Positions 13,977-39,364 are shown, counted from the first letter of the stretch. The stretch: DNA of 64,000 bases from Myxococcales bacterium (GCA_021806645.1 JAJZQX010000012.1:73764-137763); one strand, 5' to 3'. Translations and numbers: made by a program. The notes: generated by a model from the sequence alone, not told the origin.

Positions 13977-14040
13977 CCCCGGGGCGCACGTGAAGACCAC
14001 TCAGCGCAGCTCCCGCATGGTGAACGACATGGCCGCAAGG

Positions 14041-21894: not shown

Positions 21895-22715
21895 ACGTCG
21901 AGCAGGTGCTGTTCTGGTGCGCCGTCGGATTCTACGGGCTGAGCGCGTTCGCCTACGTCTTCGGCTTCATCGCCGAGAACGAGAAGCTGCTCTCTGGGGG
22001 GCTGGCCACGGCCGTGCTCGGGTTCGCCGCCCACCTGACCAGCATCGCCCTCCGCTGGGTGACGAGCAGCGTGACGCCGTTCATCACCATCTCCGAGTCG
22101 CTCGCCCTCGGGACCCTCATGGCGATGGCCCTCTTCCTCATCCTCCAGGCCTCGAACAGGAAGGTCCGGCCGCTCGGTGTCTTCGTGCTGCCGGTGGTCT
22201 TCGTGCTCATCGGGTGGGCCGGCACGCTGCGGGCGGCCTCCGGATCCCAGCTCGCCCCGGCGCTGCAGAGCGGCTGGCTCTGGGCGCACATCGTCGGCGC
22301 CACCATCGGCTTCAGCGCGGTGCTGATGGCGGCGGGGCTGGCGATGATGTTCCTGCTCAGGGAGAACCGGTCGGGGGGGATCTACGACCGGCTGCCGTCG
22401 CCGGCCGACCTCGACCGGCTGGCCTACCGGTTCGTCGCCGCCGGTTTCATCATGTACGGCCTCATGATCGTCACCGGGGCGCTCTGGGCCGACCAGGCCA
22501 AGGGCAGCTACTGGAACTGGGACCCGGTCGAGGTCTGGTCGCTGGTCTCCTGGCTCATCTACGGCATCTACCTCCACCTGCGCATCACCATGGGCTGGCG
22601 CGGGCGGAGGCTGGCCTGGTACGCGCTGGCGGCGGTGGCGGTGATGATCGTCAGCTACTGGGGCATCCCGTTCTCGGTCGAGACCTTCCACAAGGGCTTC
22701 CGCGTCGAGCACTAG
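21891..22715 (+). CDS. ccsA: System II cytochrome c biogenesis haem lyase subunit CcsA/ResC
   Basis: Polytopic membrane protein with the W-rich haem-handling motif (WADQAKGSYWNWDPVEVWS) and conserved His residues. Confidence 0.9.
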   Translation: MNVEQVLFWCAVGFYGLSAFAYVFGFIAENEKLLSGGLATAVLGFAAHLTSIALRWVTSSVTPFITISESLALGTLMAMALFLILQASNRKVRPLGVFVLPVVFVLIGWAGTLRAASGSQLAPALQSGWLWAHIVGATIGFSAVLMAAGLAMMFLLRENRSGGIYDRLPSPADLDRLAYRFVAAGFIMYGLMIVTGALWADQAKGSYWNWDPVEVWSLVSWLIYGIYLHLRITMGWRGRRLAWYALAAVAVMIVSYWGIPFSVETFHKGFRVEH

Positions 22716-22728
22716 GCGCCGGGCTTCC

Positions 22729-24075
22729 ATGAACCGCCACCTCACGACGCTCGCCGCCGCGTGTGCCGCCTGGCTGTCGCTCTCGGGCTGCCGCTGCGGG
22801 AAGCCGGAGCCGGTGCGCGGCGCGCCGCCGCTCGCAGCCGCAGCCGCCGTCGCCGCCGTGGCCGTGGCCGACAAGCCCGCCGTGCTCGCAACCCTGCCGG
22901 ACGAGCGGGAGCGGGAGTTCGTCTTCGCCGAGCGCGGGGGCGGCGTCGCCTGGGCCGATGAGAGGGGCGGCCGCTTCCAGGTGGTCCACGACGGCCGCGC
23001 CGGCAAGACCTACGACGCCGTGGGGCCGATCGCCCTCAGCCCGGACGGGCGGCGCTGCGCCCACGGGGCGCAGGCGGACGGCCAGTGGCGAATGGTGGTA
23101 GACGGCGTGGAAGGGCAGGGGTTCGACGAGGTCCAGTCGCCGGTCTTCAGCCCCGACGGAGCGCACCTCGCCTACCAGGCCAGGGCCGGGGAGCGGTGGC
23201 ACCTGGTCGTGGACACGACGGTGGGCCCTGGGACCAGGAGCCGCCTCCTCGGGCCGGAGTTCGGCGCCGACTCCTCCAGGATCGCCCTCATCGACGACGC
23301 CGACGACCAGGGTTTCGGCCGGCTGGTGGTGAGCGACCTGGACTTCAAGGGGCAGACGGTGGTCGAGGCGCGCGCCTCCGAGCTGCTGGTGAACGGGGAC
23401 CGGACCCAAGTCGCAGCCATCGGCGCGAGCGGCGGGAAGCAACGGGTGCTGACCTTCGCCTTCGACCGGCCCGGCCAGGTGAGGCGAGGGCCGGACTTCG
23501 ACGCCGTCTCCCGCCTCGCCTTCGGGCCAGGCGGCCGCTCGCTGGCCTACCTGGCGGAGCGGGCCGGCCAGCGCATGGTGGTGCTGGACGGGAAAGAGGA
23601 GACGGTGCCTCCGGGTGAGCTGTTCGGGCCGCTGGTGGTCCGTCCCGACGGCAAGGCGGTGGGGATCTTCCGGCTGGACGGTGACGCCGTGCGGCTCCAC
23701 CAAGCCTTCGCCGGGGCTGGGCCGGACGAGGTGACCCCAGGGGGAGGTGAGGAGCTCACCTACTCTCCCGGCGGCTTGCACGCCTACGCCTCCAGCCGCA
23801 GGGGACGGCAGCTCGTCGTGGTCGGCGGCAAGGACGGACCGCCCTTCGACCGGGTGGTGTCGCCGTCGTTCAGCCCCGACGGCAGGTTCCTCGTCTACCG
23901 CGCCCGCCAGGACGGGCGGCGCTTCGTGGTGGTGGCGGACCCCAGCGGCAAGACGACCCGCCAGCTGCCGACCTACGAGCAGGTCTTTCCGGTCCGGTTC
24001 ACGGCTGACGGCAAGTCGGTGGCCTACGGGGTGAAGGACGGCAAGAGCCTGCGCTGGGTCGTCGAGCCGCTCTGA
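22729..24075 (+). CDS. Lipoprotein with PD40/WD40-like (TolB-type) beta-propeller repeats
   Basis: Lipobox LSLSGC. Recurrent FSPDG/LSPDG...AY motifs (LSPDGRRCAHGA, FSPDGAHLAYQA, FSPDGRFLVYRA, FTADGKSVAYGV). Confidence 0.7.
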   Translation: MNRHLTTLAAACAAWLSLSGCRCGKPEPVRGAPPLAAAAAVAAVAVADKPAVLATLPDEREREFVFAERGGGVAWADERGGRFQVVHDGRAGKTYDAVGPIALSPDGRRCAHGAQADGQWRMVVDGVEGQGFDEVQSPVFSPDGAHLAYQARAGERWHLVVDTTVGPGTRSRLLGPEFGADSSRIALIDDADDQGFGRLVVSDLDFKGQTVVEARASELLVNGDRTQVAAIGASGGKQRVLTFAFDRPGQVRRGPDFDAVSRLAFGPGGRSLAYLAERAGQRMVVLDGKEETVPPGELFGPLVVRPDGKAVGIFRLDGDAVRLHQAFAGAGPDEVTPGGGEELTYSPGGLHAYASSRRGRQLVVVGGKDGPPFDRVVSPSFSPDGRFLVYRARQDGRRFVVVADPSGKTTRQLPTYEQVFPVRFTADGKSVAYGVKDGKSLRWVVEPL

Positions 24076-24221: not shown

Positions 24222-24524
24222 ATGGGTGCGCATCTCGACCTGGATCGCGACCAGCTCGCGGCGTTCTGTCGGCGGCACCACGTGCGCCGGCTGGCACTGT
24301 TCGGCTCCGTGCTGCGCGACGACTTCGGTCCGGACAGCGACATCGACGTGCTGGTGGAGTTCGAGCCCAACCACGTGCCGGGCTTCATCGCGCTTCACGG
24401 CCTTGAAGAGGAACTGGGGCAGTTCATGGCAGGGCACCCTGTCGATCTGGTCACCGCCGGGGCGCTCAACCACCGCATCCGTGATCGAGTCCTGGCGTCG
24501 GCCGAGGTCCAGTTTGCAGCATGA
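24222..24524 (+). CDS. mntA: MntA-type nucleotidyltransferase antitoxin
   Basis: LALFGSVLRDDFGPDSDIDVLVEF is the GS-X10-DxD minimal nucleotidyltransferase signature. Confidence 0.75.
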   Translation: MGAHLDLDRDQLAAFCRRHHVRRLALFGSVLRDDFGPDSDIDVLVEFEPNHVPGFIALHGLEEELGQFMAGHPVDLVTAGALNHRIRDRVLASAEVQFAA

Positions 24525-24670
24525 TGACGGCGTCTACCTCGGCGGCCATCATCGGCATGAGGCACCGGGTCGTCCACGATTACATGAGCGTGGACCAGGA
24601 GGTGGTCTGGAAGACGGCCACGCAGGAGATGGCGCCGCTCCTGGCGATGTTCCAGCGCCTCCGCGGGTGA
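24521..24670 (+). pseudogene. hepT: N-terminally truncated HepT (DUF86) toxin remnant of 49 codons
   Basis: My own translation is MMTASTSAAIIGMRHRVVHDYMSVDQEVVWKTATQEMAPLLAMFQRLRG. It retains the Rx4HxY motif (RHRVVHDY) but lacks the ~60-70 N-terminal residues seen in the intact copy at 25952. ATGA overlap with mntA. Confidence 0.55.
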
Positions 24671-24898
24671 GTGTGATCGCCAGGTAGGGCACCGTGCGGC
24701 ATCCTGACCGCTTATCCCCCGTCCACCTGAGCACGCCCACCCTCGCTGATGGCGGTACCCCGGGGTCCTGAGCACAGACGGTGATGGACGGGGAGCCGCG
24801 CCCCTCGATAAGGGTGGCAGCGGCGAGGGGGCAGGCGCTCCCGGGCTCGCTGCGGCGCCACCGTCTCGGTCCAGACAGCGGGATGGTGCGGCCCTCGC

Positions 24899-24917
24899 TT
24901 GACGTACGTACGTACGC
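24899..24917 (+). promoter_or_regulatory. TTGACG -35-like hexamer fused to an (ACGT)n 14-bp perfect palindrome (CGTACGTACGTACG). Candidate operator/promoter of the phd-vapC cassette.
   Basis: Read directly from the sequence. It ends 18 nt upstream of the antitoxin ATG at 24935. Confidence 0.4.
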
Positions 24918-24934
24918 GCCCAAACGTCCTGGAC

Positions 24935-25168
24935 ATGAAACGCACCGCAACCGACCTCAGGGCCCACCTCTACGAGGTCCTCGACCAGGTCGCCAGGACA
25001 GGGAAGCCGGTCGAGGTGGTGCGCGGAGGGGTCGAGCTGGCGATCGTCCGGAAAAGGGCCGCCCCGCGCCGGAAGAAGGTCCCCCGGACCATCCCTGGCC
25101 TCATCGTCGGAGACCCTGACGATCTGGTCCACATCGAGTGGCCTTGGAGTTCGCGGACGGAAGCGTGA
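24935..25168 (+). CDS. Phd/YefM-like antitoxin
   Basis: MKRTATDLRAHLYEVLDQVARTGKPVEVVRGGVELAIV is a typical Phd/YefM N-terminus. The stop overlaps the downstream PIN gene start (GTGA). Confidence 0.65.
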   Translation: MKRTATDLRAHLYEVLDQVARTGKPVEVVRGGVELAIVRKRAAPRRKKVPRTIPGLIVGDPDDLVHIEWPWSSRTEA

Positions 25169-25545
25169 GCTTCCACCTCGACACCCACGTCGCTCTCTGG
25201 ATGGCCGCGGGCGATGCGCGGCGACGACTGAAGCCGATCGAGGCGATGCTCCGCAAGGGGCCTCTGTATCTCTCCCCGCTGGCCATCCTCGAGCTGCAGT
25301 TCCTCTTCGAACTCGGCCGCCTCGGTACGCGGGTGGTGGAGGTGGTCGGCGTCCTCTTCGAGGATCACGGCGTGGAGGAGGCCCCCGGGGACCTCAGGGA
25401 GATCGGGAGGCAGGCGCAGGGACTGACCTGGACCCCCGACCCGTTCGACCGGTTGATCGTGGCGCATGCGCTCGCCCAGGGAAGCGTCATCCTCACCGCG
25501 GACGAGACGATCCTCGCCCACTGCCCTCGGGCCAGTTGGGGGTGA
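25165..25545 (+). CDS. vapC: PIN-domain ribonuclease toxin (VapC family)
   Basis: LDTHVALW...SPLAILEL...DPFDRLIVAHA...ILTADE supplies the acidic residues of a PIN domain. Best-guess start is GTG at 25165 (the track start is 25138). Confidence 0.7.
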   Translation: MSFHLDTHVALWMAAGDARRRLKPIEAMLRKGPLYLSPLAILELQFLFELGRLGTRVVEVVGVLFEDHGVEEAPGDLREIGRQAQGLTWTPDPFDRLIVAHALAQGSVILTADETILAHCPRASWG

Positions 25546-25664
25546 GTCGAGGCCCTCGCCAACGGCCCCGTGTGCCTTTCCGGTTGGCTCCACTCCGCGG
25601 CGAACCAGCGCGTTGCCGAACGCCAGGGGGGCGCGGTACGATTCGTGTGGACTTGAGGTTCTCC

Positions 25665-25955
25665 ATGCGGCCTTCCGAATCGCTTGAACTTCACCGAACC
25701 GCGGTGCGCGATCTGGTCGCTCGCTATCCCGCGGCCAATCCGCGTGTTTTTGGGTCCGTTGCGCGCGGCACGGATACCGACGCCAGCGACATCGACATCC
25801 TGGTGGACGACCTCCCCGGCTGCACACTCTTCCGGCTAGGTGGATTGCAGATGGACCTCCAAGACCTCCTCGGGGTCAAGGTCGACCTGGTGCTTCCAGA
25901 CGAACTCCCCGAGAAGTACCGGGAGTCCATTCTGTCGGAGGCGAGGGCCGTATGA
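25665..25955 (+). CDS. mntA: MntA-type nucleotidyltransferase antitoxin
   Basis: VFGSVARGTDTDASDIDILVD signature. ATG at 25665 within ORF 25536..25955. Confidence 0.8.
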   Translation: MRPSESLELHRTAVRDLVARYPAANPRVFGSVARGTDTDASDIDILVDDLPGCTLFRLGGLQMDLQDLLGVKVDLVLPDELPEKYRESILSEARAV

Positions 25956-26335
25956 AGGAGCCGAGCCTCCAGGACTACCTGGAAGACATGGTGCAGTACG
26001 GCGGGAAGGCCCGCGAGTTCTGCAAGGGGCTGACGGAAGAGGCTCTGCAGCATGACGACAGAACTCGCTTTGCTGTGGAAAGGCTGCTCGAGATCGTCGG
26101 CGAGGCCGCCGCCAAGGTCGTCGCTCGGCACCCTCGGTTCGTGGACCGCCATCCGGAAGTGCCCTGGCGCGACATGGCCGGTATGAGGAACCGCCTTGCT
26201 CACGCGTACCGGAGCATCAGGCTGCATCTTGTCTGGGAAGCTGCGACGGTGAGCATTCCTGATCTCGAGAAGAAGATGCCTGAGCTTCGCGCGGATGTCC
26301 CGGCATACGAGCGAAGCCGCGGCCCCGCTCTCTAG
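25952..26335 (+). CDS. hepT: HepT (DUF86) toxin
   Basis: Full-length 127-aa protein with MRNRLAHAY (Rx4HxY). ATGA overlap with mntA. Confidence 0.85.
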   Translation: MKEPSLQDYLEDMVQYGGKAREFCKGLTEEALQHDDRTRFAVERLLEIVGEAAAKVVARHPRFVDRHPEVPWRDMAGMRNRLAHAYRSIRLHLVWEAATVSIPDLEKKMPELRADVPAYERSRGPAL

Positions 26336-26512
26336 CCGGGACGCCCGGTCAGTTCGAATGGGTCACGCCCGGGACGGACGCTCCAACACCGAGAAGCGGT
26401 TGGAGCCGAACGCGACCTGAACCCTCGCCGCGCGCCTCGACCGCCCCAGCCCACACATCCAGGACATGACGCGGACCGCCGCCGACCGCGCGGGGACCCC
26501 GCTGGTGGCGTC

Positions 26513-26971
26513 TCAGGCGGAAGTGCCCGGTGGCCCTCCCAGCAGGTAGTCCCGCCAGTCCTGCCAGGCCACGCCGGCGCGCTCCGCCGGAGCCCGACCG
26601 GCGGCGGCGCCCAGCACGAGAGGCTTGAACCTGGGGTGACGGCGATTGAACTCGAGGAGACCGGCGAGTTCGGTGGCCCGGAACGGGCCGGTCTTCACCT
26701 CGATGGCCCAAGCGCCCCAGGTCCCCTCGATCACCCCGTTCACCTCGAATGGCTCCTCGCGCCACGAGGAGACTCGCTGCCCTGAGTTCCAGGCGTGGGC
26801 CAGGCAGGCGTTCTCGACCCAGGCGCCGAACCTGGCCGGGTCGGCCGCGGGGTCCACCGGCCCGCCGGGCGCGCCGGCACCGTCGCCCAGGGGCTGCTGC
26901 TGGGAAAGTTTCCGGCCGCCCAACTCACCGCGCTCCGCCACCGGCGTCGAGCGCGCGGCCGAGACCGGCAT
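26513..26971 (-). pseudogene. C-terminal fragment of a DUF4143/COG1373-type AAA ATPase
   Basis: GAWVENACLAHAW...SWREEPFEVNGVIE...WAIEVKTG matches the C-terminal DUF4143 region. No P-loop domain lies upstream. Confidence 0.5.
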
Positions 26972-27189
26972 GAAGTGGCCGGTGGATTACGCTGCTACGC
27001 GGGAACCGACAGCCCGATCGGCGCGCAGCGGGTTGGCGCCCGGGCGCCGGTTCGCGGAGCCGCCGCGCCAGGGCCTCCCGGCAGTCGGCGAAGTCGAGGC
27101 GGAAGGTGTCGCCGGTCACGGTCGAATAATCATTCGACTACAAGCGAATAGCAACTTCAGGCGGCGGCGTGTGAACGGCGGCTTCAGGG

Positions 27190-27322
27190 GCGTCCTGCGG
27201 GCGCGCCGGCATCTTCTCCTGGAGGTCACGTCGCCAGGACCGGGAAGCCGGTCGAGGTGATGAGTGGCGGTGTCGAGCTGTCCATCGTCCGGAAGACAAC
27301 AAGTGGGTGCCAGCCCGGTTGA
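27190..27322 (+). pseudogene. Frameshifted remnant of a second Phd/YefM-like antitoxin gene
   Basis: gtcgccaggaccgggaagccggtcgaggtgatgagtggcggtgtcgagctgtccatcgtccggaag is about 80% identical over ~75 nt to 24988-25062. It encodes VARTGKPVEVMSGGVELSIVRK out of frame with its upstream part. Confidence 0.45.
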
Positions 27323-27346
27323 CCCCACCTGGTACCGCCGGTAGCC

Positions 27347-27706
27347 TTGACGCCAGGTTGGGAGGTGCGCGCCTTGCTGACACATCCGGAAATCGACGCT
27401 CGCAGCCGTGCCCTCCATCGCCTGGTGGCGGACAAGGTTCGACTGGAGCCGGCGCGGTTCGAGCGGGCCCGCACGATCCTGCGGCATTGGCGCATCGTGG
27501 TCTGCGAGAACTCGCAGCCGTACTTGGCCGAGTGGGAGGGCCTCTTCCGGCAGGGGGTCGAACCGACTCTGGCGGTGGCCGTGGAGGACTCCGAGCGAGC
27601 GGATGCGCTCCGGCAGTGTTCGCCGCTGGCCGGCGTGCTGACGAATCGGGAGCGGTGGGCCTTTCTGCGAGACTGGAGCCGGTCGCATGAGGCGCAAGGA
27701 GCTTGA
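27347..27706 (+). CDS. Hypothetical protein, possibly the partner of the downstream nucleotidyltransferase-fold protein. The start may be the TTG at 27374.
   Basis: Coding-like composition. GGGAGG lies 8 nt before the TTG at 27374. It overlaps the downstream ORF by 20 nt. Confidence 0.45.
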   Translation: MTPGWEVRALLTHPEIDARSRALHRLVADKVRLEPARFERARTILRHWRIVVCENSQPYLAEWEGLFRQGVEPTLAVAVEDSERADALRQCSPLAGVLTNRERWAFLRDWSRSHEAQGA

Positions 27707-28280
27707 GCACATCATTCGAGTGGCGGCCGGACTCGCGGACTCCCTTGAGATCGTGGTCGTCGGTAGCCAGTCCATTCTCGGAGCCCTGCCTGACGCTCCG
27801 GCCGAGCTGCTCGAGTCCATGGAGGCCGACGTCTACGCGCTCCATGCGCCTGAGAAGTCGGAGGTCATCGAGGGGGCGATCGGAGAGGGTTCCCCGTTCG
27901 AGACCATGTACGGCTATCGAGCCCAGGGGGTCGGACCGGAGACCGCCAAGTTGCCGATCGGGTGGGAGAACCGCGTCGTGCGGGTGCAGAACCCCAACAC
28001 GGACAACAAGATCGGCTACTGCCTGGAGCCGCATGACATGGCGGCGGCGAAGCTCGTGGCGAGTCGGGAGAAGGACAAGCCGTTCGTTTCCGCCATGCTT
28101 CGGCTGGGAGTGATCCAGGAAGCGACCCTCGCCGAGCGGCTCACGACGTTGCCGATCGAGCCCGAGCACAGGGAACGGTTGCGGCAGTGGCTGAGCGCGG
28201 AGATGGAACGCCAGAGGTCGATGTCGCCTGGCCGCCCGGGGCTTGGCGGGCGCGGGCGGGATTCCGGGCCTGCACGGTGA
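27687..28280 (+). CDS. DUF6036-like / nucleotidyltransferase-fold protein (candidate TA or Abi component)
   Basis: MRRKELEHIIRVAAGLADSLEIVVVGSQSILG... resembles families I recall as DUF6036. I could not verify this. Confidence 0.5.
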   Translation: MRRKELEHIIRVAAGLADSLEIVVVGSQSILGALPDAPAELLESMEADVYALHAPEKSEVIEGAIGEGSPFETMYGYRAQGVGPETAKLPIGWENRVVRVQNPNTDNKIGYCLEPHDMAAAKLVASREKDKPFVSAMLRLGVIQEATLAERLTTLPIEPEHRERLRQWLSAEMERQRSMSPGRPGLGGRGRDSGPAR

Positions 28281-28383: not shown

Positions 28384-29745
28384 TTGAAGCTCTGCATCAT
28401 CAAGCCACCGCTTCCCTTCGGCTGGACGCCGGTGGCGCCGCCCATCCTCGAGTACCTGGCGGCGCTCACCCGCCAGGCCGATCCCAGCATCGACATCGAG
28501 GTCTACAGCGCCAGCGCCACGCCGGACGTCTTCGACACCCTGGAGTGCGATCTGGCGGCCATCAGCCTGCTGACGCCGACCTCCGTCCCCGGCTACCGGA
28601 TCGCCGACGGGCTGCGGGCGCGCGGCATCAAGGTGGTGGTCGGCGGCATGCACGCCACGGCCCTGCCGGAGGAGGCCAAGCTCCACGCCGACGCGGTGGT
28701 GACCGGCGAGGCCGAGTCGGTCTGGCCGCGGGTGCTCGCCGACTTCCGCGCCGGCACGCTGCAGCCCTTCTACAGGGGCGAGCAGCTCCCGCTCGAAGGC
28801 CTGCCCACACCGCTCTACGGCCTGCTGAAGCACGGCCACGACTTCCGCATCGTCAACACCGCCCGCGGCTGCCCGTACCCGTGCAGCTTCTGCACGGTGA
28901 GGAAGGTCTTCGGCTCCAAGATCCGCATGCGCCCCATCGACGACGTGGTGCGCGACGTGGACGCCATGCCGGGCGGCATGTACATCAACGGCGACGAGAA
29001 CATCTGGTGGCTGGGCAAGACCGACCGGGCCATCGAGCTCTTCACCGCGCTGCGGGGGAGCAAGAAGAAGTGGATGGGCTTCGGCAGCCTGGCGCCGGTC
29101 CTCTCTCCCGATGGCTCGCGCATGCTCAAGGCGGCCAGGGCGAGCGGGATGCTGACGGTCTGGGTCGGGTGGGAGTCGATCACCGACGGCGGGCTCGAGG
29201 AGTACCGCGCCGACCGGAAGGTGGGGATCGACCGCGAGCGCGCGGTCCGGACCTTGAAGGACCACGGCATCGACGTCTCGCTCTTCTTCATGCTCGGCTC
29301 GCGCGCCGACTCGCTCGACGACTACCACCGCGCCGTGGACCTGGCCGACCGGCTCGGCGTGAGCATGCACCCGTCGCTGGTGGTCCCGTATCCCGGCACC
29401 GACCTGCGCAAGGAGTACCAGCCCTACCTCTACAAGGAGCTGGGCTGGGAGTACTACACCGGGGCCTACGCGCTCTTCGAGCACCCGGACCCGGGCATGA
29501 CCCCCGAGGTGCGGGAGGAGCGGTTCTACGAGACCTCGCTGGAACTGCTCAAGCTGGGACGGATCTGGAAGCACATGTTCAAGGTCCCGGCCTCGGGCTT
29601 TCCCCACGCCCACATCCTCTCGCTGATGAACCAGCTCCCGGTCCGCAAGGGGATGAAGATCGCCTTCGAGAAGTGGAAGGAATCGAAGCAGGCCGTGCGC
29701 GAGAAGCAGGCACGGCCCGGGGCCGACTCCGCCCTCACCGGATAG
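28384..29745 (+). CDS. B12-binding-domain radical SAM protein (COG1032 class)
   Basis: TTG start with GGAGGAG 4 nt upstream. N-terminal Rossmann-like B12 domain (AISLLTPTSVPGYRIADGLRARGIKVVVGGMHAT). Radical SAM cluster motif CPYPCSFC (CX3CX2C). Confidence 0.85.
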   Translation: MKLCIIKPPLPFGWTPVAPPILEYLAALTRQADPSIDIEVYSASATPDVFDTLECDLAAISLLTPTSVPGYRIADGLRARGIKVVVGGMHATALPEEAKLHADAVVTGEAESVWPRVLADFRAGTLQPFYRGEQLPLEGLPTPLYGLLKHGHDFRIVNTARGCPYPCSFCTVRKVFGSKIRMRPIDDVVRDVDAMPGGMYINGDENIWWLGKTDRAIELFTALRGSKKKWMGFGSLAPVLSPDGSRMLKAARASGMLTVWVGWESITDGGLEEYRADRKVGIDRERAVRTLKDHGIDVSLFFMLGSRADSLDDYHRAVDLADRLGVSMHPSLVVPYPGTDLRKEYQPYLYKELGWEYYTGAYALFEHPDPGMTPEVREERFYETSLELLKLGRIWKHMFKVPASGFPHAHILSLMNQLPVRKGMKIAFEKWKESKQAVREKQARPGADSALTG

Positions 29746-29822
29746 ATCTCCCCGGAGGCGCTGGTGTCGCGGTGCTCGATCGCGCCGCTCCCGCTGGCTC
29801 CCTTCGTGCAAAGGAATCGAGC

Positions 29823-31319
29823 ATGCCGACTCCCACAGCCGCCACCACCGACCTGTCCGGCCCCGCCCTCGAGCGTCACCGGCTCACCGAGGAGGTCCTC
29901 GGCTACATCGAGGCCGGCGTGGACGCCGAGGTCCCCGACTTCAACGGCTCCTGCCTGCGGATGTTCGCCCTGCACTACGAGGTGAACCCGATCTTCCGCG
30001 AGTTCTGTGACGTCAAGAAGGTCCGCCCCGGCGACGTGACGCGCTGGCAGGACGTCCCGCTGGTCTACAACGACATGTTCAAGACCCACCTGGTGGCCTC
30101 CTTCCCGCTGGAGAAGGCGGTCATGGGCTGCCTCACCGGCGGCACCACCAGCCTCACGCAGCGCGGCCGGATCTTCCGCGACGAGGAGGGGAAGAAGCTG
30201 GTCTTCGGCGCCAACAAGCGGATGACCGGCGCCTACCTCTTCCCCGACTTCGAGGAGGGCAAGCGCTGCCGCATCCTCATCCTCGCCCCCAGCCCGGAGA
30301 TGGCCCCGTCGATGGGCATGGCCATCGGCATGGAGCAGACGCGGACCCACTTCGGCACGCCCGACAGCCAGTTCCTGCTGGGCCGGACCGGGATCGACGT
30401 CAACGGTCTCTTGAAGGCGCTGCGAGAGGCGGAGGCGAGCGGCGTGCCGGTGGCGATCATCGGCGCCACCTCCGCGTACGTCTACTTCTTCCAGGCCTGC
30501 AAGCGGAAGAGGTGGAGCTTCAAGCTGCCGAAGGGGAGCCGGGTCTGCGACGGCGGCGGCTACCGCGGTCGCTTCGGGACCGTCACCCGCGACGACTACT
30601 ACGCCATGGTGGAGGCGACGCTCGGGGTCCCGTCCTCCCACTGCGTCAACGTGCTCGGCGAGGCCGAGACCGCCACCAACCTGTTCGACGACGCGCTCCG
30701 CCGCCACGTCCAGGGGCTGCCGCCGCGGGACCGGATCCGCCCGGTGCCGCCCTGGTCGCGCGTGCTGGCCATGGACATCGACACGCTCGAGCCGCTCCCC
30801 GACGGGAAGGTCGGGCTGATGGCCCACTGGGACCTCGCCAACGTCCCCACCGTGCTGGCGGTCATCACCGACAACCTCGGGTACACCGCCGACCAGGGGC
30901 GCGCCTGCGAGATCGTGGGGCGGGCCAAGCTCGAGGGCGGCAAGGTCTCGCCGCTGCCCGACGAGCGCCCGATCGGAGGCATGGGAGACTCGGCCATCTT
31001 CCGGATGCTCGAGACCTACGTGAACTTCTCCATCGACCTGAAGATGCTCACGGCCAAGGCGCCCCCGGCCGAGCCGAGCACGCGCGAGGAGATCGAGGCC
31101 CGTCCGGGCTCGGTCGCCTCCTGCCCGCAGGTGGTGGACGAGATCCTGGTCTCGCAGGGCAACGAGGACGCCGCGCGCCAGCGCGACGCGTCGCTGCGGA
31201 CGTTCAAGGACCAGACCGAGCGTCCCATGGAGTGGTTCGTCGAGCAGGCCAGGAAGCAGAAGCTCGCGGACCACCCGGCCGGTCTCCAGTCGGAGGAGCC
31301 GGGGCCCAACAAGCTGTAG
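29823..31319 (+). CDS. LuxE-like acyl-protein synthetase / adenylate-forming enzyme (ANL/PaaK-like superfamily)
   Basis: N-terminus F..LHYEVNPIFREFCD...RWQDVPLVYNDMFKTH...CLTGGTTSLTQRG matches the LuxE layout as I recall it. There is a ~100-aa C-terminal extension. ATG at 29823 within ORF 28545..31319. Confidence 0.65.
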   Translation: MPTPTAATTDLSGPALERHRLTEEVLGYIEAGVDAEVPDFNGSCLRMFALHYEVNPIFREFCDVKKVRPGDVTRWQDVPLVYNDMFKTHLVASFPLEKAVMGCLTGGTTSLTQRGRIFRDEEGKKLVFGANKRMTGAYLFPDFEEGKRCRILILAPSPEMAPSMGMAIGMEQTRTHFGTPDSQFLLGRTGIDVNGLLKALREAEASGVPVAIIGATSAYVYFFQACKRKRWSFKLPKGSRVCDGGGYRGRFGTVTRDDYYAMVEATLGVPSSHCVNVLGEAETATNLFDDALRRHVQGLPPRDRIRPVPPWSRVLAMDIDTLEPLPDGKVGLMAHWDLANVPTVLAVITDNLGYTADQGRACEIVGRAKLEGGKVSPLPDERPIGGMGDSAIFRMLETYVNFSIDLKMLTAKAPPAEPSTREEIEARPGSVASCPQVVDEILVSQGNEDAARQRDASLRTFKDQTERPMEWFVEQARKQKLADHPAGLQSEEPGPNKL

Positions 31320-31412: not shown

Positions 31413-32252
31413 TCACCCAGCCAGACCAGCCCGCCGCAGGCTGCGGTGTACGGACCGGAAGACGCCGTCGAACTCGGGCAGCTCGACCATCTGGGCGGCG
31501 AGGCGCGCGCCCCAGAGCTTCTTCAGGCGGGATTCCTTCTTTTGGAACTCCTCGCCGAGCGTCGCCAAGGCTCTGCCCCGGAACTCGAGCTTCCTTTCCA
31601 CCTCGGCCTTGAGGTGGTCGAGGTCCACGTGCCCGCCGGTCGTCAGGTGCCAGATGTCGTAGAGGTCACGGGGCTCGTTGCGCGCGCGGTCGCCGAGCGC
31701 CACGACCTTCTCCACGGAGATCTCATCGAGCGAGTACACACGCACGGTCGCGCCGTCCGGCAAGTCCTCGTACTACCCGTAGCCGCGGACGACGGGTCGA
31801 TCCACGAGCGGGGTTACCAGGCACTCGCGGATGGTGACGTCGACCTTCACCTCGCGGGCCGTGCGCGAGGGGAGCGGTCCGTCGTAGCCCAGGTAGAAAG
31901 TGTGGCTGTTCAGGTGCCGTTGGCGGTCCTCCCGATCGAAGCGGAACAGGAGGCCGGAGGCCCGCCGCACCTCCTTGAAGACTGGCTCGAGCTCGGCGTG
32001 GAGGGCCTCGAAGGGGACCTCCTCCGTCAGCGTGAAGTCGAGGTCCTCGGAGAAGCGGTAGTCGCCGAAGTAGCAGCGCTTGATGGCCGTCCCGCCCTTG
32101 AACGCGAGCCGCTCCCGAAGCGGCGCACGGGACAGGCCCACGAGGAACCACGCCAGGCAGTAATCCCGCTCGAGCACGGCCTCCGGGATTCGTCGGCCGC
32201 CTTCACGCGCGAGCCGGTTGGACAGGAGGGAGATGTTTCGGTGGGGGATCAT
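31413..32252 (-). pseudogene. abiEii: AbiEii/AbiGii-family nucleotidyltransferase toxin (type IV TA) interrupted by one in-frame TAG at 31773-31775
   Basis: ORFs 31773..32252 and 31413..31763 are in the same frame. The junction reads GYG-TAG-YEDLPDGATVRVYSLDE. Motifs: AFKGGTAIKRCY...RFSEDLDF. Confidence 0.8.
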
Positions 32253-32256
32253 CGGC

Positions 32257-33102
32257 TCACGTGCTCCGGACCGCCGTGAGTTCCTCCGTGCTCACGTTGA
32301 GACGGAGCCGCCAGCGAGCCACGCGATGGCCCTCGACCGGAAGGGTGGGATCGAGCAGCTGATACGTGGCGGTGAGCCTCGCGCGCAGCCGTGCGATGGC
32401 TGCCGGCTCGTCGACCCCGCACGTTTCGAGCAGGAAGCCGAGCCGGCGGATGACGGCGCCGACATCGAGACGGATCGCGTAGTCGACGAGCCGCCCGATG
32501 TTCATGTCGCCCCTTCGCATCCAGAAGCCCTTGGCCACTTCGACGATGCCGCCGCAGTATCCGGGCTGCTTGAGGCCGTCGATGACCGTGCGCTCCAGGT
32601 CGCTCACGATGACCTTCTCGGTCTTGTCGACCCAGTGCTCGACCAGGCCGAAGAGGTGCTCCGCCTTGCATCGGACGAAGCGGAACTCGGTGCCGAGAAT
32701 GGTCCGCCGCCGAAGCGGGAGGGGGCTTGTCACGTAGACGACAAACTGTGGCTGCGTGACCATCCGGTGCATGTCCATGGCCGAAGCGTGCGACAGGTAG
32801 TAGTCGCGTCCGCCCGCGAGCGCGCGCGCGACAATGTTCGGGTTGCCGAGGTACTCGCGTTCACGCCCAAGTTCGAAAGGCACCAGTATGAACAGACCGG
32901 GCTTGAGGCGGGTCGCCACACCCCGCCGGACGAGTTTTCCCACGAAGTTCCGCGTGGTCTTGGGCCCGAGGCCCGTGACCTCCTGGACATCGCCGACCGT
33001 GAAGATGGTTCGTCGCTTCTCGTGGAGTGCCGCGAGGAGCCTGGCCGCTTGTGGGCCGAGCGTCTTCTGTTGGCTCAGCCCTTCGTGAGTATTCGTCTGC
33101 AT
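32257..33102 (-). CDS. abiEi: AbiEi-family antitoxin / transcriptional regulator (type IV TA)
   Basis: ATG at 33102 (MQTNTHEGLSQQ...). N-terminal wHTH (IFTVGDVQEVTGLGPKTTRNFVGKLVRRGV) and an AbiEi C-terminal domain. It stops 4 nt before the abiEii start. An AT-richer promoter region lies at 33103-33270. Confidence 0.8.
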   Translation of the reverse strand: MQTNTHEGLSQQKTLGPQAARLLAALHEKRRTIFTVGDVQEVTGLGPKTTRNFVGKLVRRGVATRLKPGLFILVPFELGREREYLGNPNIVARALAGGRDYYLSHASAMDMHRMVTQPQFVVYVTSPLPLRRRTILGTEFRFVRCKAEHLFGLVEHWVDKTEKVIVSDLERTVIDGLKQPGYCGGIVEVAKGFWMRRGDMNIGRLVDYAIRLDVGAVIRRLGFLLETCGVDEPAAIARLRARLTATYQLLDPTLPVEGHRVARWRLRLNVSTEELTAVRST

Positions 33103-33275: not shown

Positions 33276-33626
33276 TCACCCATGGACCAACAGGTACTGG
33301 TACAGCGTGCCGGCCGCGAAGACCACGCCGAGCAGGGCGTGCTTCACCTTGAGGAGCTGGATCCGGCTCCGCTCCATGTCCCCGGTCCAGCCGAAGACCT
33401 TCCAGGTGACCATGCGGACCACGCCGGTGGCCACGATGACGGCCAGGCTCACCCAGGTGACCACCAGGAACTTCCGCTCCAGCCCCGGGACCAGGGGGCC
33501 GGCCAGCAGCCAGGCGGGCCGCTGGGTCTCGCGGTGGAGCATGGTGAGCAGGATGAGCGTGCCGATCCACGTGCCGGTCGCCACGTCGTGGACGAAGGCG
33601 TTGAGGATGGTGAGCCGGTCCCGCAT
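33276..33626 (-). CDS. Small integral membrane protein (3-4 TM helices), function unknown
   Basis: Hydrophobic helices (WIGTLILLTML, FLVVTWVSLAVIVATGVV, ALLGVVFAAGTLYQYLL). Codon usage matches neighbouring genes. It is divergent from radical SAM gene 2. Confidence 0.55.
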   Translation of the reverse strand: MRDRLTILNAFVHDVATGTWIGTLILLTMLHRETQRPAWLLAGPLVPGLERKFLVVTWVSLAVIVATGVVRMVTWKVFGWTGDMERSRIQLLKVKHALLGVVFAAGTLYQYLLVHG

Positions 33627-33806: not shown

Positions 33807-35321
33807 ATGACCGCTCGCCGTCCTCGAGTCCTGCTCGTCACCGCGCCGTATCACTCGGGTGTGGTCGAGTCGGCCGGCGTCTGGATGCCACTCAACTTCG
33901 CGTACGTGGCGGGGGCCGCCCGGAAGGCCGGCGCCGAGGTCGAGATCTACGACGCGATGAGCCTCTTCGCCTCGCACGACGACATCCGGAAGAAGATCGA
34001 GGCCTTCAAGCCCGATCTGATCGGCACCACCGCCATCACCGCCACCGAGCCCGACTGCCGCGTCATCTGCGCCACGGCCAAGGCCTGGAACCCGGCGGTG
34101 AAGACCATCATCGGCAACGTCCACGCCACCTTCTGCTGGGAGCAGATCCTCCGCGACGACCCCAACGTGGACTTCGTGGTCCGCGGCGAGGGCGAGCTGA
34201 CCATCATGGAGCTGGTCAAGGCGATCGAGGCGGGCGAGGGCTGGGACCGGATCGACGGCCTGGCCTGGCGCAAGGACGGCCACCCGGTGACCAACGGCCC
34301 GCGCGCGCTGCAGGCCGACATCGACTTCGTCACGCCCGCCTGGGATCTCGTGGACTGGCCGCTCTACTACTACCGGCCCCGGCCGCACGGCCGCCTCGCC
34401 ATCGCCAACTCGGCGCGCGGCTGCTCGTCGCGCTGCAGCTTCTGCTCGCAGCAGAAGTTCTGGGGGCGCAGCTGGCGCGGGCGGGATCCGCTCAAGTTCG
34501 TCTCAGAGCTGGAGCACCTGCGGGACACCTACGGCGTGGCCGTGACCATGCTCTCCGACGAGACGCCCACCTCCGACGGGGCGCGCTGGGAGGCGATCCT
34601 CGACCTGATGATCGAGCGGCAGACCGGCGTCGAGATCCTGATGGAGACCCGCGTGGACGACGTGATCCGCGACGAGCCGGTCCTGTCCAAGTACGTCAAG
34701 GCGGGGATCAGCCACATCTACGTGGGGGTCGAGTCCACCAACCAGTCCACGCTCGACATGTACCACAAGGACATCAAGGTCAACCAGTCGAAGAAGGCCA
34801 TCGATCTCATCAACCAGCACGGCATGGTGAGCGAGACCTCCTTCGTGCTCGGCACGCCCGACGAGACCGCCGCCTCCATCCGCAAGACGGTCGAGCTGGC
34901 CAAGTGGTACGCGCCGGACATGGCCTTCTTCCTGGCGCTGACGCCGTGGCCCTACGCCGAGATCGCCGGCGAGCTCGACGGGCACGTCGCCACCCGCGAC
35001 TACCGGCGCTACAACCTGGTCGAGCCGGTCATGAAGCCGGACAACATGACGATGGAGGAGGTCCAGAGGGAGCTCCACCGCGCCACCGGCCACTTCTTCC
35101 ACGACAAGTTCCAGAACCTTCACAAGCTCTCGCCGGAGAAGCGGGCCTTCATGGTGAGCGTGCTCAAGCTGCTCATCGAGAAGAGCTACCTCGGCCAGGA
35201 GATGAAGCACATGGCCAGCGGCGCCGAGATGCCGGAGTCGGTCCGCAAGATGCTGGCCGAGCTCGGCCCCATCACCGGGCCGGTGGCCGGCGGTCCGGGA
35301 ACCAGCCGGAAGGCGGGGTGA
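33807..35321 (+). CDS. B12-binding-domain radical SAM protein (BchE/HpnJ-like COG1032 class)
   Basis: N-terminal B12-type domain (LIGTTAITATEPDCRVICATAKAWNPAVKTIIGNVHAT). Cluster motif CSSRCSFC (CX3CX2C). Confidence 0.85.
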   Translation: MTARRPRVLLVTAPYHSGVVESAGVWMPLNFAYVAGAARKAGAEVEIYDAMSLFASHDDIRKKIEAFKPDLIGTTAITATEPDCRVICATAKAWNPAVKTIIGNVHATFCWEQILRDDPNVDFVVRGEGELTIMELVKAIEAGEGWDRIDGLAWRKDGHPVTNGPRALQADIDFVTPAWDLVDWPLYYYRPRPHGRLAIANSARGCSSRCSFCSQQKFWGRSWRGRDPLKFVSELEHLRDTYGVAVTMLSDETPTSDGARWEAILDLMIERQTGVEILMETRVDDVIRDEPVLSKYVKAGISHIYVGVESTNQSTLDMYHKDIKVNQSKKAIDLINQHGMVSETSFVLGTPDETAASIRKTVELAKWYAPDMAFFLALTPWPYAEIAGELDGHVATRDYRRYNLVEPVMKPDNMTMEEVQRELHRATGHFFHDKFQNLHKLSPEKRAFMVSVLKLLIEKSYLGQEMKHMASGAEMPESVRKMLAELGPITGPVAGGPGTSRKAG

Positions 35322-35324: not shown

Positions 35325-35771
35325 GTGGCTGGGGCGGGGCGCTGGGGCGCGCGGCGCGCCGTCGCGCTCGCGCTGCTGGGCTCGCTCGGCGCGGTGGCCG
35401 GCTGCGCCGGGATCTTCGGTCCGCGCCGCCCCTGGGTCGAGTTCACGCCCTACCCCGAGTCGCAGGTGGCCGGGGTGCGCGACCCGCACGACTACCTCGG
35501 CAAGCCGCTCTGCCAGCGCTGTCACCTGCCCGGTCGTGGGGGTCTGACCAGCGGCGCCATCTCGCTCTGCGTGAGCTGCCACGCCTTCGGCCACGGCAAC
35601 CACCCGGTGGACGTGGTCCAGAAGGCGCCGGCCACGGGGATCCCGCTGCTGGAGGGCGGGCGGGTGGCCTGCCACAGCTGCCACGATCCGCATGACCTGA
35701 AGCGCAACCGGGCGGGCTTGCGCTTCCCCTTCACCGAGCTCTGCCTCCGCTGCCACACCCGCCACGCGTAG
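35325..35771 (+). CDS. Tetrahaem c-type cytochrome lipoprotein (c3/c7-like)
   Basis: GTG start 3 nt after the radical SAM stop. Lipobox GAVAGC. Four CXXCH motifs: CQRCH, CVSCH, CHSCH, CLRCH. Confidence 0.8.
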   Translation: MAGAGRWGARRAVALALLGSLGAVAGCAGIFGPRRPWVEFTPYPESQVAGVRDPHDYLGKPLCQRCHLPGRGGLTSGAISLCVSCHAFGHGNHPVDVVQKAPATGIPLLEGGRVACHSCHDPHDLKRNRAGLRFPFTELCLRCHTRHA

Positions 35772-38268: not shown

Positions 38269-38660
38269 GGGTGCTGCTCCCCGCCGTCGGCGGCCCGTTC
38301 GGCCGGCGCGGCGGCCTGGCCGGCGCGACCGCGCTCCGCCTGCAGGATGGCCAGCTCCTGCGTCAGCCGGCGGACCTGGACGGTGAGGCGGGAGATGACG
38401 GTGGTGAAGTGGACGCTGATGAGGAGCAGGAAGATGAGCGCGAAGATGAAGACGGTGGTGGTGACGGTGACGGCGCCGATGACGCGGGTGATCCACTCGA
38501 TCAGCCCGTACCAGGTGGCCAGCAGCATCATGCCGACCGTGGTGAGCACCCAGAGCAAGGCGTACTCCTCCCGCAGGCGGCGGCGGCGGATCAGCTCCAT
38601 GACCACGAGGAAGGTGGTGATGGAGATGACGATGGCGAAGACGCGTTGGGTGGGGGTCAT
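38265..38660 (-). CDS. DUF2304-like small membrane protein
   Basis: MTPTQRVFAIVISITTFLVVMELIRRRRLREEYALLWVL... I recall this family as commonly following GT2 genes. ATGA overlap with the upstream GT2 gene. Confidence 0.65.
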   Translation of the reverse strand: MTPTQRVFAIVISITTFLVVMELIRRRRLREEYALLWVLTTVGMMLLATWYGLIEWITRVIGAVTVTTTVFIFALIFLLLISVHFTTVISRLTVQVRRLTQELAILQAERGRAGQAAAPAERAADGGEQHP

Positions 38661-39364
38661 GGCCGTTCGTTCCGCAGGGGGACCAGCGCCAGGGCGAGGG
38701 TCATCCGGAAGACGTAGTAGAGCGGCCGGAGGACGCCGCCGTGCATGCTCTTGCCGCCGGGGGAGCCGAGCATGCGGACCGGCACCTCGGTGAGCTTCAT
38801 GCCGGAACGGGCCACCATGGCCAGCACGTCGGCGTCCGGGTAGTCGTGGGGCCAGCGGTCGTGGGCGTAGAACTCGAGGGCCCGGCGGGAGATGGCCTGG
38901 AAGCCGCTGGTCGGGTCGGTGAGCCGCTGGCCGGAGAGGTGGCTGGCGACGGCGCCGAAGAGGGTCATGCCGAGCCGGCGCGAGAGCGGCGGTTTGTAGG
39001 AGCCGGGGTGGAGGAAGCGTGAGCCGACCACCACGTCGTGGCCGGCGAGCGCCGCCAGCAGCGGCGGGATCGAGGCCGGATCGTGCTGGCCGTCGGCGTC
39101 GAGCTGGAGCACCGCGTCGTAGGCGTGGCGCAGGGCGTAGCGGTACCCGGTCTGGAGCGCCGAGCCGTACCCCAGGTTGACCGGGTGCGTCGCCACGATG
39201 GCGCCCCCGGCCCAGGCCTCGGCGGCGGTGGCGTCGAGCGAGCCGTCGTCCACCACCAGCACGTCGGCGGCCACCTGGCCGCGCACCGCCTCGACCACGC
39301 CGCGGATGCGGAGGGCCTCGTTGAAGGCGGGGATGACGACGAGGAGCTTGGTGGGGACGGGCAT
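38657..39364 (-). CDS. GT2-family glycosyltransferase (polyprenol-phosphate sugar synthase, Dpm1/GtrB-like)
   Basis: ATG at 39364 (MPVPTKLLVVIPAFNE...). VVDDGSLD, QLDADGQHDP, TDPTSGFQA motifs. Confidence 0.85.
   Translation of the reverse strand: MPVPTKLLVVIPAFNEALRIRGVVEAVRGQVAADVLVVDDGSLDATAAEAWAGGAIVATHPVNLGYGSALQTGYRYALRHAYDAVLQLDADGQHDPASIPPLLAALAGHDVVVGSRFLHPGSYKPPLSRRLGMTLFGAVASHLSGQRLTDPTSGFQAISRRALEFYAHDRWPHDYPDADVLAMVARSGMKLTEVPVRMLGSPGGKSMHGGVLRPLYYVFRMTLALALVPLRNERP

Follow-up and report, generated by a model that had tools for sequence, protein, structure and literature searches.

A 64,000-nucleotide stretch of DNA from a Myxococcales bacterium (GCA_021806645.1 JAJZQX010000012.1:73764-137763; here called the window) encodes, between positions 28,384 and 31,319, a B12-binding radical S-adenosylmethionine (SAM) enzyme, rSAM_A, followed by an adenylating enzyme of the LuxE/PaaK family, referred to below as the LuxE-like enzyme. 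This gene pair is part of a conserved chromosomal module physically linked to dedicated machinery for haem export and attachment, and to giant cytochromes. That the module is functionally tied to cytochrome c biogenesis is very probable. The explanation that we favour, namely that it tailors haem for a dedicated System II cytochrome c synthase, is offered tentatively, as a proposition that may well turn out to be wrong.

We compared 82 independent related loci, which belong to Myxococcota, Desulfobacterota, Nitrospirota, Chloroflexota and Actinomycetota, searching with tblastn for all window proteins in 84 fetched loci, and computed frequencies on the 44 of them in which the LuxE-like gene is flanked by 8 kb or more on each side. 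The gene of rSAM_A lies less than 600 bp from that of the LuxE-like enzyme in 42 of the 82 independent loci, spread over the five phyla, and a counterpart at 65% identity or more is present inside 10 kb in 82% of the full-flank loci; this pairing is far beyond chance. The same 44 loci bring in a small CopD-like membrane protein and a second B12-binding radical SAM enzyme resembling BchE, rSAM_B (89% each), the haem-handling proteins CcsA (75%) and ResB (55%), a giant cytochrome (50%) and a PD40 lipoprotein (45%), while the share of toxin-antitoxin (TA) genes is near zero. Gene maps of C. bemidjiense, A. oryzae and a Nitrospirota contig, together with the tblastn results, display the same gene set throughout, in several gene orders. 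Two cultured strains, Citrifermentans bemidjiense Bem and Anaeromyxobacter oryzae Red232, carry it in full, rSAM_A included. The minimal core, kept even in Actinomycetota, consists of ResB, CcsA, the LuxE-like enzyme, BchE-like rSAM_B and the CopD-like protein. These are the only five cluster genes of an actinobacterial metagenome-assembled genome (MAG; locus L079), in which polysaccharide genes surround them. Very often rSAM_A is present as a fifth enzyme, and the PD40 lipoprotein and giant multihaem cytochromes are the usual neighbours.

Conservation of the two enzymes is strong. The LuxE-like protein has hundreds of full-length homologues at 73-96% identity, in Anaeromyxobacter, in Geobacteraceae/Desulfuromonadales, in Nitrospirota, in one Chloroflexota MAG and in MAGs of Coriobacteriia/Actinomycetes, and an alignment of 15 sequences from three phyla has a mean column identity of 85%, the C-terminal tail included. 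Identity to the window protein ranges from 72 to 80% for the LuxE-like enzyme and from 70 to 84% for rSAM_A, against 33-64% for their cluster-mates in the same loci. Recent horizontal transfer was considered as the source of this high identity and was rejected on account of the state of the synonymous sites and of third-position G+C. Fourfold-degenerate sites of both genes are at the random level even in comparison with A. oryzae (this level is about 0.5 when both genes have a G+C content at third codon positions, GC3, near 0.97), and both genes carry the GC3 of each host, from 0.49 to 0.98. Saturation of these sites, together with host-matched GC3, points to an old divergence of sequences held in place by strong purifying selection.

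In the window, a CcsA/ResC-like protein whose WWD motif is visible (YWNWDPVEVWS) is encoded next to a ResB-like protein, the combination that defines a System II cytochrome c synthase. CcsA scores 178.5 bits against NCBIfam TIGR03144, slightly under the cut-off of 187.6, as is expected of a divergent dedicated paralogue. In some loci a second CcsA paralogue is seen, at about 57% identity. Cytochrome c haem lyases dedicated to special sites are known, as in NrfEFG or with the Wolinella CcsA paralogues NrfI and CcsA1, and the cluster resembles them in that an extra CcsA/ResB paralogue is encoded beside the cytochromes that it presumably matures. The known lyases, however, come without cytoplasmic tailoring enzymes, whereas the cluster adds an adenylating enzyme and two or three B12 radical SAM proteins.

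The giant secreted cytochrome encoded just upstream of ResB has 18 CXXCH haem motifs, one CX3CH (CTNACH) and one CX4CH (CTNVYCH), all within its C-terminal 950 residues. Its first 1250 residues or so (13966-17700) are devoid of haem motifs and comprise Fn3-like and NDNF-like domains, and this stalk is not kept in other phyla. Residues from about 1780 to 2201 (19300-20571) make up a six-haem C-terminal module of some 420 residues that matches no Pfam domain and is marked by the motifs LRDPD, FSRNL, NSSYHPVxGKQNN, TVTAHG, YAFIRN and a terminal GGTY. Cytochromes encoded beside ResB and PD40 in Geobacteraceae, Nitrospirota and Archangiaceae share this module at 40-57% identity.

As an annotation, the cluster has been on record since 2009. 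In Aklujkar et al. (2009; PMC2700814), Table S5 lists, under 'cytochrome c biogenesis gene clusters', GSU2893 as an acyl-protein synthetase, GSU2891 as ResB, GSU2890 as ResC, GSU2889 as hypothetical, GSU2888 as a radical SAM protein and GSU2887 as a 27-haem cytochrome, gives the five-gene content also for G. metallireducens Gmet_0592-0597, and accompanies the proposal that every ResB/ResC pair works specifically for the cytochromes close to it, the GSU2891-GSU2890 pair being orthologously conserved. GSU2887-GSU2893 and Gmet_0592-0597 apparently are the orthologous cluster in a model organism. They encode the same proteins (acyl-protein synthetase, ResB, ResC, small hypothetical protein, radical SAM protein, giant cytochrome), with the difference that a single radical SAM gene is listed there and that rSAM_A seems absent. 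GSU2887 appears in the literature as a large predicted extracellular cytochrome with no assigned function, expressed under low-potential conditions. Our literature search returned no functional study of the cluster, nor of GSU2888, GSU2889 or GSU2893, the annotation table (PMC2700814) being the sole record; a 2026 preprint on multihaem cytochromes of peat uses radical SAM proteins only as an exclusion filter. A preliminary description of the window, made from the sequence alone, had likewise placed the pairing in no characterised pathway. No description seems to exist of the cluster's function, its spread over five phyla, its extreme conservation, the identity of the BchE-like partner or the re-engineered LuxE arm.

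The gene pair itself is well delimited. The window has about 70% G+C and genes were called by GC3. The TTG start of rSAM_A at 28384 has AGGAGG 5 nt upstream and is preceded by GGTAGGAGGAG; an AAGGA motif lies upstream of the LuxE-like ATG at 29823, and exactly 77 nt separate the two genes. Coordinates and upstream motifs thus agree with the two-gene unit, 77-nt gap and ribosome-binding sites of the preliminary description, and Pfam bears out its naming of a B12 radical SAM protein and a LuxE-type adenylating enzyme. rSAM_A matches B12-binding (PF02310) at 38.2 bits against a cut-off of 32.1 and Radical_SAM (PF04055) at 35.4 against 29.5, and the LuxE-like protein matches LuxE (PF04443) at E = 4.4e-20, with 72.4 bits against 24.9. 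What that description overlooked, just beyond the TA and Abi insertions that flank the pair, are the BchE-like gene, the CopD-like gene and the cytochrome-biogenesis genes, which are the real context.

With an N-terminal B12-binding Rossmann domain followed by a CX3CX2C radical SAM core (C163-P-Y-P-C167-S-F-C170, nt 28870-28893), rSAM_A is a class B enzyme. It reaches the cut-off of no named family (the best is TIGR04013, 71.5 bits against 251), its top NCBIfam matches are the MJ_1487 and MJ_0865 families, its best relative in the PDB is QCMT (9ccb, E = 4.4e-11), and the names given to it in public records are generic. rSAM_B, 24% identical to rSAM_A, is much easier to place. It matches the BchE family TIGR02026 at E = 2.6e-117 and 392.7 bits over positions 1-457 of the 497 of the model, HpnR coming next at 145 bits. 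BchE is also the best match of all 20 rSAM_B orthologues tested (best E = 4.2e-123), and annotated bchE products of purple bacteria and cyanobacteria share 34-37% identity with rSAM_B along 90% of its length. Judged by these comparisons, it belongs to a sister family of BchE. A hopanoid methylase or ladderane-type lipid enzyme was also tried for rSAM_B and rejected, the BchE score being some 250 bits higher. In one Thermodesulfovibrio MAG (locus L067, 12335-13846) the rSAM_B orthologue contains an internal stop, from pseudogenisation or an assembly error.

BchE, the Mg-protoporphyrin IX monomethyl ester cyclase of anaerobic (bacterio)chlorophyll synthesis, has the C13 propionate ester as its target, and needs this propionate to be methyl-esterified beforehand by BchM. 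The logic that we propose for the cluster is alike, a porphyrin propionate being derivatised before B12 radical SAM chemistry, except that activation would proceed by adenylation and thioester formation instead of methyl esterification. The hosts differ too. Anaeromyxobacter, Geobacteraceae, Nitrospirota and the other rSAM_B hosts are non-phototrophic; the gene has no photosynthesis context and no bch genes nearby, its neighbours being ResB, CcsA and cytochromes.

Used as a query against solved structures, a profile of the subfamily of the LuxE-like enzyme has LuxE (7xc6_E) as its sole match (E = 1.6e-13, residues 43-355), and an exhaustive search of 1.84 billion representative proteins retrieved 1463 relatives, most of them 360-400 residues long, 30-45% identical and matching only residues 20-369. 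Kept motifs are the P-loop T105-G-G-T-T109 (nt 30135-30149) and GGGY(R248)G (R248 at nt 30564-30566), together with residues E282, W311, R313, D337, N340, T349-D350 and G366-R367 (R367 at nt 30921-30923). The short relatives end in 'GRAxGAExRGCSxxxDE'. In the LuxE-like protein an insertion of about 60 residues (approximately 370-430, nt 30930-31112) separates G366-R367 from 'S-C434-PQVVDE', and a helical tail of 64 residues (435-498) follows; alignment with the short relatives makes both specific to the subfamily. The C-terminal extension of about 100 residues announced in the preliminary description therefore corresponds to sequence that is indeed extra, but is split between this insertion and the tail. 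The conserved cysteine of the family, which 67 of 72 outgroup sequences possess, corresponds in the alignment to C434 (nt 31122-31124).

LuxE has no ANL C-terminal subdomain; its K238/R355 pair serves adenylation, and the acyl group goes to C364, in a flexible C-terminal motif (TRxxKGCxLS) that swings into LuxC (PDB 7xc6; PMC9157457). The LuxE-like protein likewise has an ANL-type N-terminal adenylation domain, with the P-loop and without the usual C-terminal subdomain; R367 aligns with R355 and C434 with C364, while R248 stands in place of K238. Similarity is nevertheless remote (about 20% identity), the catalytic lysine is an arginine, the cysteine comes 67 residues after the GR motif instead of 9, with the helical tail behind it, and the partners encoded in the cluster are B12 radical SAM enzymes and ResB/CcsA instead of LuxC and LuxD. 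We infer from the alignment that the self-acylating 'swinging cysteine' mechanism would have been kept, with a lengthened arm and a change of acceptor enzyme.

For the LuxE-like protein AlphaFold2, run with an alignment of 89 sequences that included representatives at 50% identity or less, gave a predicted local distance difference test (pLDDT) of 86.4 and a predicted template modelling score (pTM) of 0.85; a shallow alignment of 15 sequences had led to an unusable model (pLDDT 44). The core (10-375) is modelled with confidence, the linkers 382-393 and 411-428 with low confidence, and helices are predicted at 391-410, 434-443, 448-466 and 469-478. Foldseek places PaaK1 (2y27) on top at E = 2.7e-12, with PaaK2 and other adenylate-forming enzymes among its matches, which argues for an ANL/PaaK fold. 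Phenylacetate-CoA ligase (PDB 2y27, 2y4n) shares the adenylate-forming core of the model, with a template modelling score of about 0.5. It is 13-16% identical to the LuxE-like protein and uses CoA and a mobile C-terminal subdomain, whereas the predicted acceptor here is the enzyme's own cysteine.

We propose the following sequence of events, which retains the activation of a carboxylate followed by B12 radical chemistry that the preliminary description had suggested, and which still is the most sensible outline. In the cytoplasm, the LuxE-like enzyme would adenylate a carboxylate, most likely a propionate of haem or of a porphyrin precursor, and the acyl group would then move, as in LuxE, to the enzyme's own C434, carried by a much longer flexible arm. 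The substrate, tethered as a thioester, would be offered to the B12 radical SAM partners, which would take the place of the LuxC reductase. rSAM_B might perform a BchE-type oxidation or C-C chemistry, for example ring closure, on the activated propionate, and rSAM_A a further methylation or radical step. This chemistry would take place at the membrane, beside the CopD-like protein, after which the dedicated CcsBA would export the tailored haem and attach it to particular sites of the neighbouring extracellular cytochromes, the six-haem C-terminal module being the obvious candidate recipient.

Four considerations lead to a tetrapyrrole substrate. Enzymes apart, the only invariant partners are ResB and CcsA, both of which handle haem. 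Among the radical SAM partners, the best conserved resembles BchE, whose own substrate is a metalloporphyrin bearing a derivatised propionate. In haem, an adenylating enzyme would have two carboxylates to act on. Finally, a thioester would fill the activating role of the methyl ester required by BchE. On these grounds haem or a porphyrin is put forward as the substrate, an assignment to which we give a little less than an even chance. There is, by way of analogy alone, a precedent in the synthesis of coenzyme F430, where ATP-dependent activation of a tetrapyrrole propionate by CfbE leads to new C-C chemistry, the closure of a carbocycle; CfbE, which is Mur-ligase-like, has an unrelated fold and proceeds through an acyl-phosphate, not an acyl-adenylate. 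A still wider claim, that metal-reducing and related anaerobes of five phyla have an unrecognised tailored haem c, installed by the dedicated CcsBA at specific sites of giant cytochromes, is possible but doubtful, and the specific order of a propionyl thioester followed by BchE-type chemistry is, taken literally, rather unlikely.

Several observations weigh against haem tailoring. We know of no modified c-type haem in the cytochromes of Geobacter or Anaeromyxobacter, although none of the giant cytochromes linked to the cluster has been the subject of structural work. Prediction of substrates by homology is unreliable for B12 radical SAM enzymes, and rSAM_B stays under the BchE equivalog cut-off (392.7 bits against 481.35). 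The position of the catalytic K238 of LuxE is an invariant arginine, R248, in the subfamily, while it is a lysine in 64 of 72 outgroup sequences. In a quarter of the full-length loci CcsA is not found within 10 kb, and some Nitrospirota loci (L003, L017) display only the LuxE-like enzyme, a paralogue of rSAM_A, the CopD-like protein and rSAM_B. Furthermore, GSU2887-GSU2893 were matched to the cluster by annotation and gene order in a published table, rather than by sequence.

Three other explanations remain live. In the first, residues of apocytochromes or of ResB/CcsA would undergo C-methylation or cross-linking by the B12 radical SAM enzymes in the cytoplasm, and the LuxE-like enzyme would acylate a protein. 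Such enzymes exist, as QCMT and Mmp10 modify methyl-coenzyme M reductase, and the best solved-structure relative of both rSAM_A and rSAM_B is precisely QCMT (9ccb), a protein glutamine C-methyltransferase; the MJ_1487 and MJ_0865 matches of rSAM_A go in the same direction, LuxE is by definition an acyl-protein synthetase, and synteny with cytochromes applies equally. These matches, however, are weak (E between about 1e-11 and 1e-20, far under the cut-offs) and mostly reflect the shared radical SAM core, rSAM_B scores some 250 bits better against BchE than against any family modifying proteins or peptides, and the minimal locus L079 keeps ResB and CcsA with no obvious substrate cytochrome nearby. 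We consider protein modification unlikely.

Another possibility is that the module tailors a component of the envelope on which the anchoring or secretion of cytochromes depends, for example a hopanoid-like or other lipid, an acyl chain, or a glycoconjugate such as a polysaccharide. This would fit the fatty-acid-activating relatives of LuxE, the matches of rSAM_B to HpnR, HpnJ and 'ladderane' lipid B12 radical SAM families, and the recurrence near the cluster of glycosyltransferases, TPR/GT-C-like membrane proteins, a carbamoyltransferase and polysaccharide genes. Yet these neighbours vary and stay outside the core, where ResB and CcsA, which handle haem, are the invariant partners; the scores of HpnR and HpnJ are 2.7 to 3.8 times lower than that of BchE, and no hopanoid or fatty-acid synthesis genes co-occur. 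The probability of this explanation is correspondingly low. There is also a slim chance that haem is trafficked or checked for quality without chemical change, the LuxE-like enzyme tethering it by a propionyl thioester and passing it to CcsBA, while the radical SAM proteins are used for repair, sensing or degradation. The long cysteine arm and the extreme conservation of the LuxE-like enzyme suggest many protein contacts, and linkage to CcsA and to the cytoplasm-facing CopD-like protein is tight. By contrast, two or three B12 radical SAM enzymes would be costly for a chaperone, and their conservation (median identities of 73% and 54%) argues for a defined chemical step.

The remaining two explanations are far weaker. 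The preliminary description had correctly noticed that a TA block of some 4 kb and an AbiE cassette stand on either side of the pair, as Pfam and PADLOC confirm with MNT/HepT, Phd/PIN and AbiE matches, and had kept open a role in conflict systems, the pair gathering with TA and Abi modules in a defence island. This role fails, the pair being embedded elsewhere in a conserved cluster of ResB/CcsA and multihaem cytochrome genes; the module is not a defence system, and the chance that we leave to the idea is negligible. Outside the window, the pair has TA neighbours in L005 and L006 alone, the two Anaeromyxobacter MAGs closest to it, where they occupy the same site. None of the other loci has an intact AbiE cassette: they contain no homologue of AbiEi, and AbiEii is matched only partially, over short stretches, in L015 and L049. 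In A. oryzae 22 bp separate the LuxE-like gene from the CopD-like gene, whereas the window has its AbiE cassette between the two. The cassettes are also decaying. The AbiEii frame, otherwise intact, is split by a single stop (…VVRGYG*YEDLPDG…), which makes it either a recent pseudogene or the victim of a sequencing error, and the TA block holds a relic of Phd. Absence from the other loci, the 22-bp junction and this decay identify the TA and AbiE cassettes as insertions proper to this Anaeromyxobacter lineage, outside the system. At the position of the Phd relic, directly upstream of rSAM_A, L006 has a complete second Phd/PIN pair, so that the TA block is turning over. A homologue of the PDC-S01-like open reading frame (ORF) is found at the same place in L006.

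Other features of the pair are no more in favour of defence. PADLOC-DB 2.0 has no match for the LuxE-like protein and only a generic radical SAM match of 18.7 bits (PDC-M51A) for rSAM_A; the searched plasmids and phages contained no close relative, but only relatives at 31% identity or less that matched the core alone; and synteny with respiratory genes is stable, with a GC3 adapted to each host. Flanking repeats or att-like sites were sought at the AbiE cassette, where only short chance repeats were found.

A classical Lux-type branch, in which a fatty acid is activated and then reduced to the aldehyde, draws on Pfam LuxE membership and on the pairing of short relatives with a LuxC-like acyl-CoA reductase, but is scarcely credible, tblastn with a LuxC-like protein finding no such gene in the window or in the 84 fetched loci, the score against the NCBIfam LuxE equivalog NF052244 (long-chain-fatty-acid--protein ligase) reaching 56.9 bits against a cut-off of 550, and the insertion and tail being specific to the subfamily. 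What this default partnership of the family looks like outside luminous bacteria can be seen on a plasmid of Pantoea sp. SO10 (L085, 5950-9358), where a short LuxE-family protein of about 360 residues, annotated 'long-chain fatty acid--CoA ligase', overlaps a LuxC-type acyl-CoA reductase, itself followed by an SDR gene.

Features of the window around the gene pair, with strand, basis of assignment and, for cluster members, median identity of homologues to the window protein (closest relatives left out)
Feature	Position	Strand	Basis or remark	Median identity
Giant secreted multihaem cytochrome	13966..20571	+	2201 aa; motif count; Pfam/NCBIfam Cytochrome_C7, fn3, GSu_C4xC__C2xCH	
ResB-like (CcsB) subunit of System II cytochrome c synthase	20593..21894	+	Pfam ResB, 28.8 bits (cut-off 24.6)	49%
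CcsA/ResC-like haem-handling subunit	21891..22715	+	Pfam Cytochrom_C_asm, E = 1.2e-37	64%
PD40/TolB-like beta-propeller lipoprotein	22729..24075	+	Pfam PD40; lipobox LSGC	42%
TA block (whole)	24222..28280	+	Pfam, PADLOC	
MNT nucleotidyltransferase	24222-24524	+	in TA block	
Phd	24899-25168	+	in TA block	
PIN	25138-25545	+	in TA block	
MNT	25536-25955	+	in TA block	
HepT	25952-26335	+	in TA block	
PDC-S01-like ORF	26513-26971	-	152 aa; PADLOC PDC-S01 (candidate defence family), E = 1.1e-8; no Pfam match	
Phd relic	27227-27337	+	37 aa; 57% identical to Phd 24899-25168	
DUF6036 nucleotidyltransferase	27687-28280	+	in TA block	
rSAM_A, class-B (B12-binding) radical SAM enzyme	28384..29745	+	453 aa; TTG start	73%
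LuxE-like, LuxE/PaaK-family adenylating enzyme	29823..31319	+	498 aa; ATG start	77%
AbiE cassette (whole)	31413..33102	-	1.9 kb; Pfam, PADLOC	
AbiEii, pseudogene	31413-32252	-	279-aa frame; in-frame stop 31773-31775	
AbiEi antitoxin, intact	32257-33102	-	Pfam, PADLOC, translation	
CopD-like small membrane protein	33276..33626	-	116 aa; about 3 transmembrane helices; GC3 = 0.98; NCBIfam CopD, E = 7.8e-6	33%
rSAM_B, BchE-like B12-binding radical SAM enzyme	33807..35321	+	504 aa; NCBIfam BchE TIGR02026	54%
Small multihaem cytochrome lipoprotein	35325..35771	+	Paired_CXXCH_1	
Polytopic membrane protein with C-terminal TPR repeats	35788..38496	-	at least 8 transmembrane segments; not orthologous to the recurring TPR proteins	

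Among the smaller members of the cluster, the CopD-like protein has no solved-structure relative by sequence search; 20 of 25 of its homologues match CopD (best E = 1.2e-6). Its polar residues H13, D14, R71, K95 and H96 are invariant or nearly so, and the positive-inside rule would place them at the cytoplasmic face of the membrane. The PD40 lipoprotein matches NCBIfam TmcD_fam over residues 81-201 (E = 2.8e-23, far under the family cut-off), a subunit of an electron-transfer complex of sulfate reducers.

Further genes accompany the cluster outside the window. About a quarter of the loci, among them L003 (11515-13314), L018, L046, L055 and L083, encode a third B12 radical SAM protein, a paralogue 45-52% identical to rSAM_A; in some genomes this paralogue, at 46% identity, ends in a hydrophobic extension, and that of L003 has 599 residues, with a hydrophobic C-terminal extension of some 150 residues that is suggestive of membrane anchoring. 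A secreted protein of about 170 residues that belongs to no Pfam family is encoded in L001 (12972-13484) and 27 other loci (28 in all), in many Geobacteraceae and Nitrospirota between CcsA and rSAM_A, and is absent from the window; in the table of Aklujkar et al. (PMC2700814) a comparable place is taken by a 'GSU0703 conserved hypothetical'. When all ORFs of the loci were clustered de novo, the only further conserved neighbours to emerge were this protein and TPR membrane proteins. The latter (TMTC/DUF1736-like) recur near the cluster, with glycosyltransferases, in about 20 other loci, and might be involved in glycosylation of cytochromes or of the envelope. Sporadic neighbours comprise an ABC ATPase, a pseudopilin, a response regulator, a carbamoyltransferase, a GT2 glycosyltransferase and NikR.

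Downstream of rSAM_B in the window, the small multihaem cytochrome lipoprotein is a lineage-specific neighbour (L002, L007 and L012 only, all Anaeromyxobacteraceae), and GT2 and GT4 glycosyltransferases come after the TPR membrane protein (region 35788-40753). Elsewhere, too, the window abounds in multihaem cytochromes, NHL propellers, peptidyl-prolyl isomerases (PPIases) and glycosyltransferases, and as a whole it looks like a cytochrome island of an Anaeromyxobacter-like genome. Genes in the style of extracellular electron transfer are found at 49288-53698 (- strand) and 3555-4607; they code for an NHL beta-propeller, a protein with a double PPIase domain, a 568-residue cytochrome with eight paired-CXXCH domains and a 350-residue MtrC-like multihaem cytochrome. 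An ORF of 808 residues (45335-47761, - strand), whose coding signal is strong (GC3 = 0.94), has no Pfam family at an E-value of 1e-4 or better. An Rfam scan of the window, for a cobalamin riboswitch for example, returned nothing, no tRNAs were found, and a scan for promoters and terminators gave nothing exceeding shuffled expectation.

What are the consequences? TA and Abi cassettes standing beside a gene pair are, to begin with, weak evidence for a role in defence. Should the tailoring of haem prove true, System II maturation of cytochromes c would gain a previously unrecognised cytoplasmic tailoring branch, and some of the largest extracellular cytochromes of Geobacter, Anaeromyxobacter and Nitrospirota would carry a non-standard haem, with a bearing on their redox or conductive properties and on the way electron transfer to minerals and electrodes is tuned. 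It would also mean a new type of reaction both for the LuxE/PaaK family and for the family of BchE-like B12 radical SAM enzymes. Even if the guess about the substrate is wrong, an identity of about 77% retained by the LuxE-like enzyme across phyla, with saturated synonymous sites, marks an important function, and GSU2888-GSU2893 provide a genetically tractable model for the cluster.

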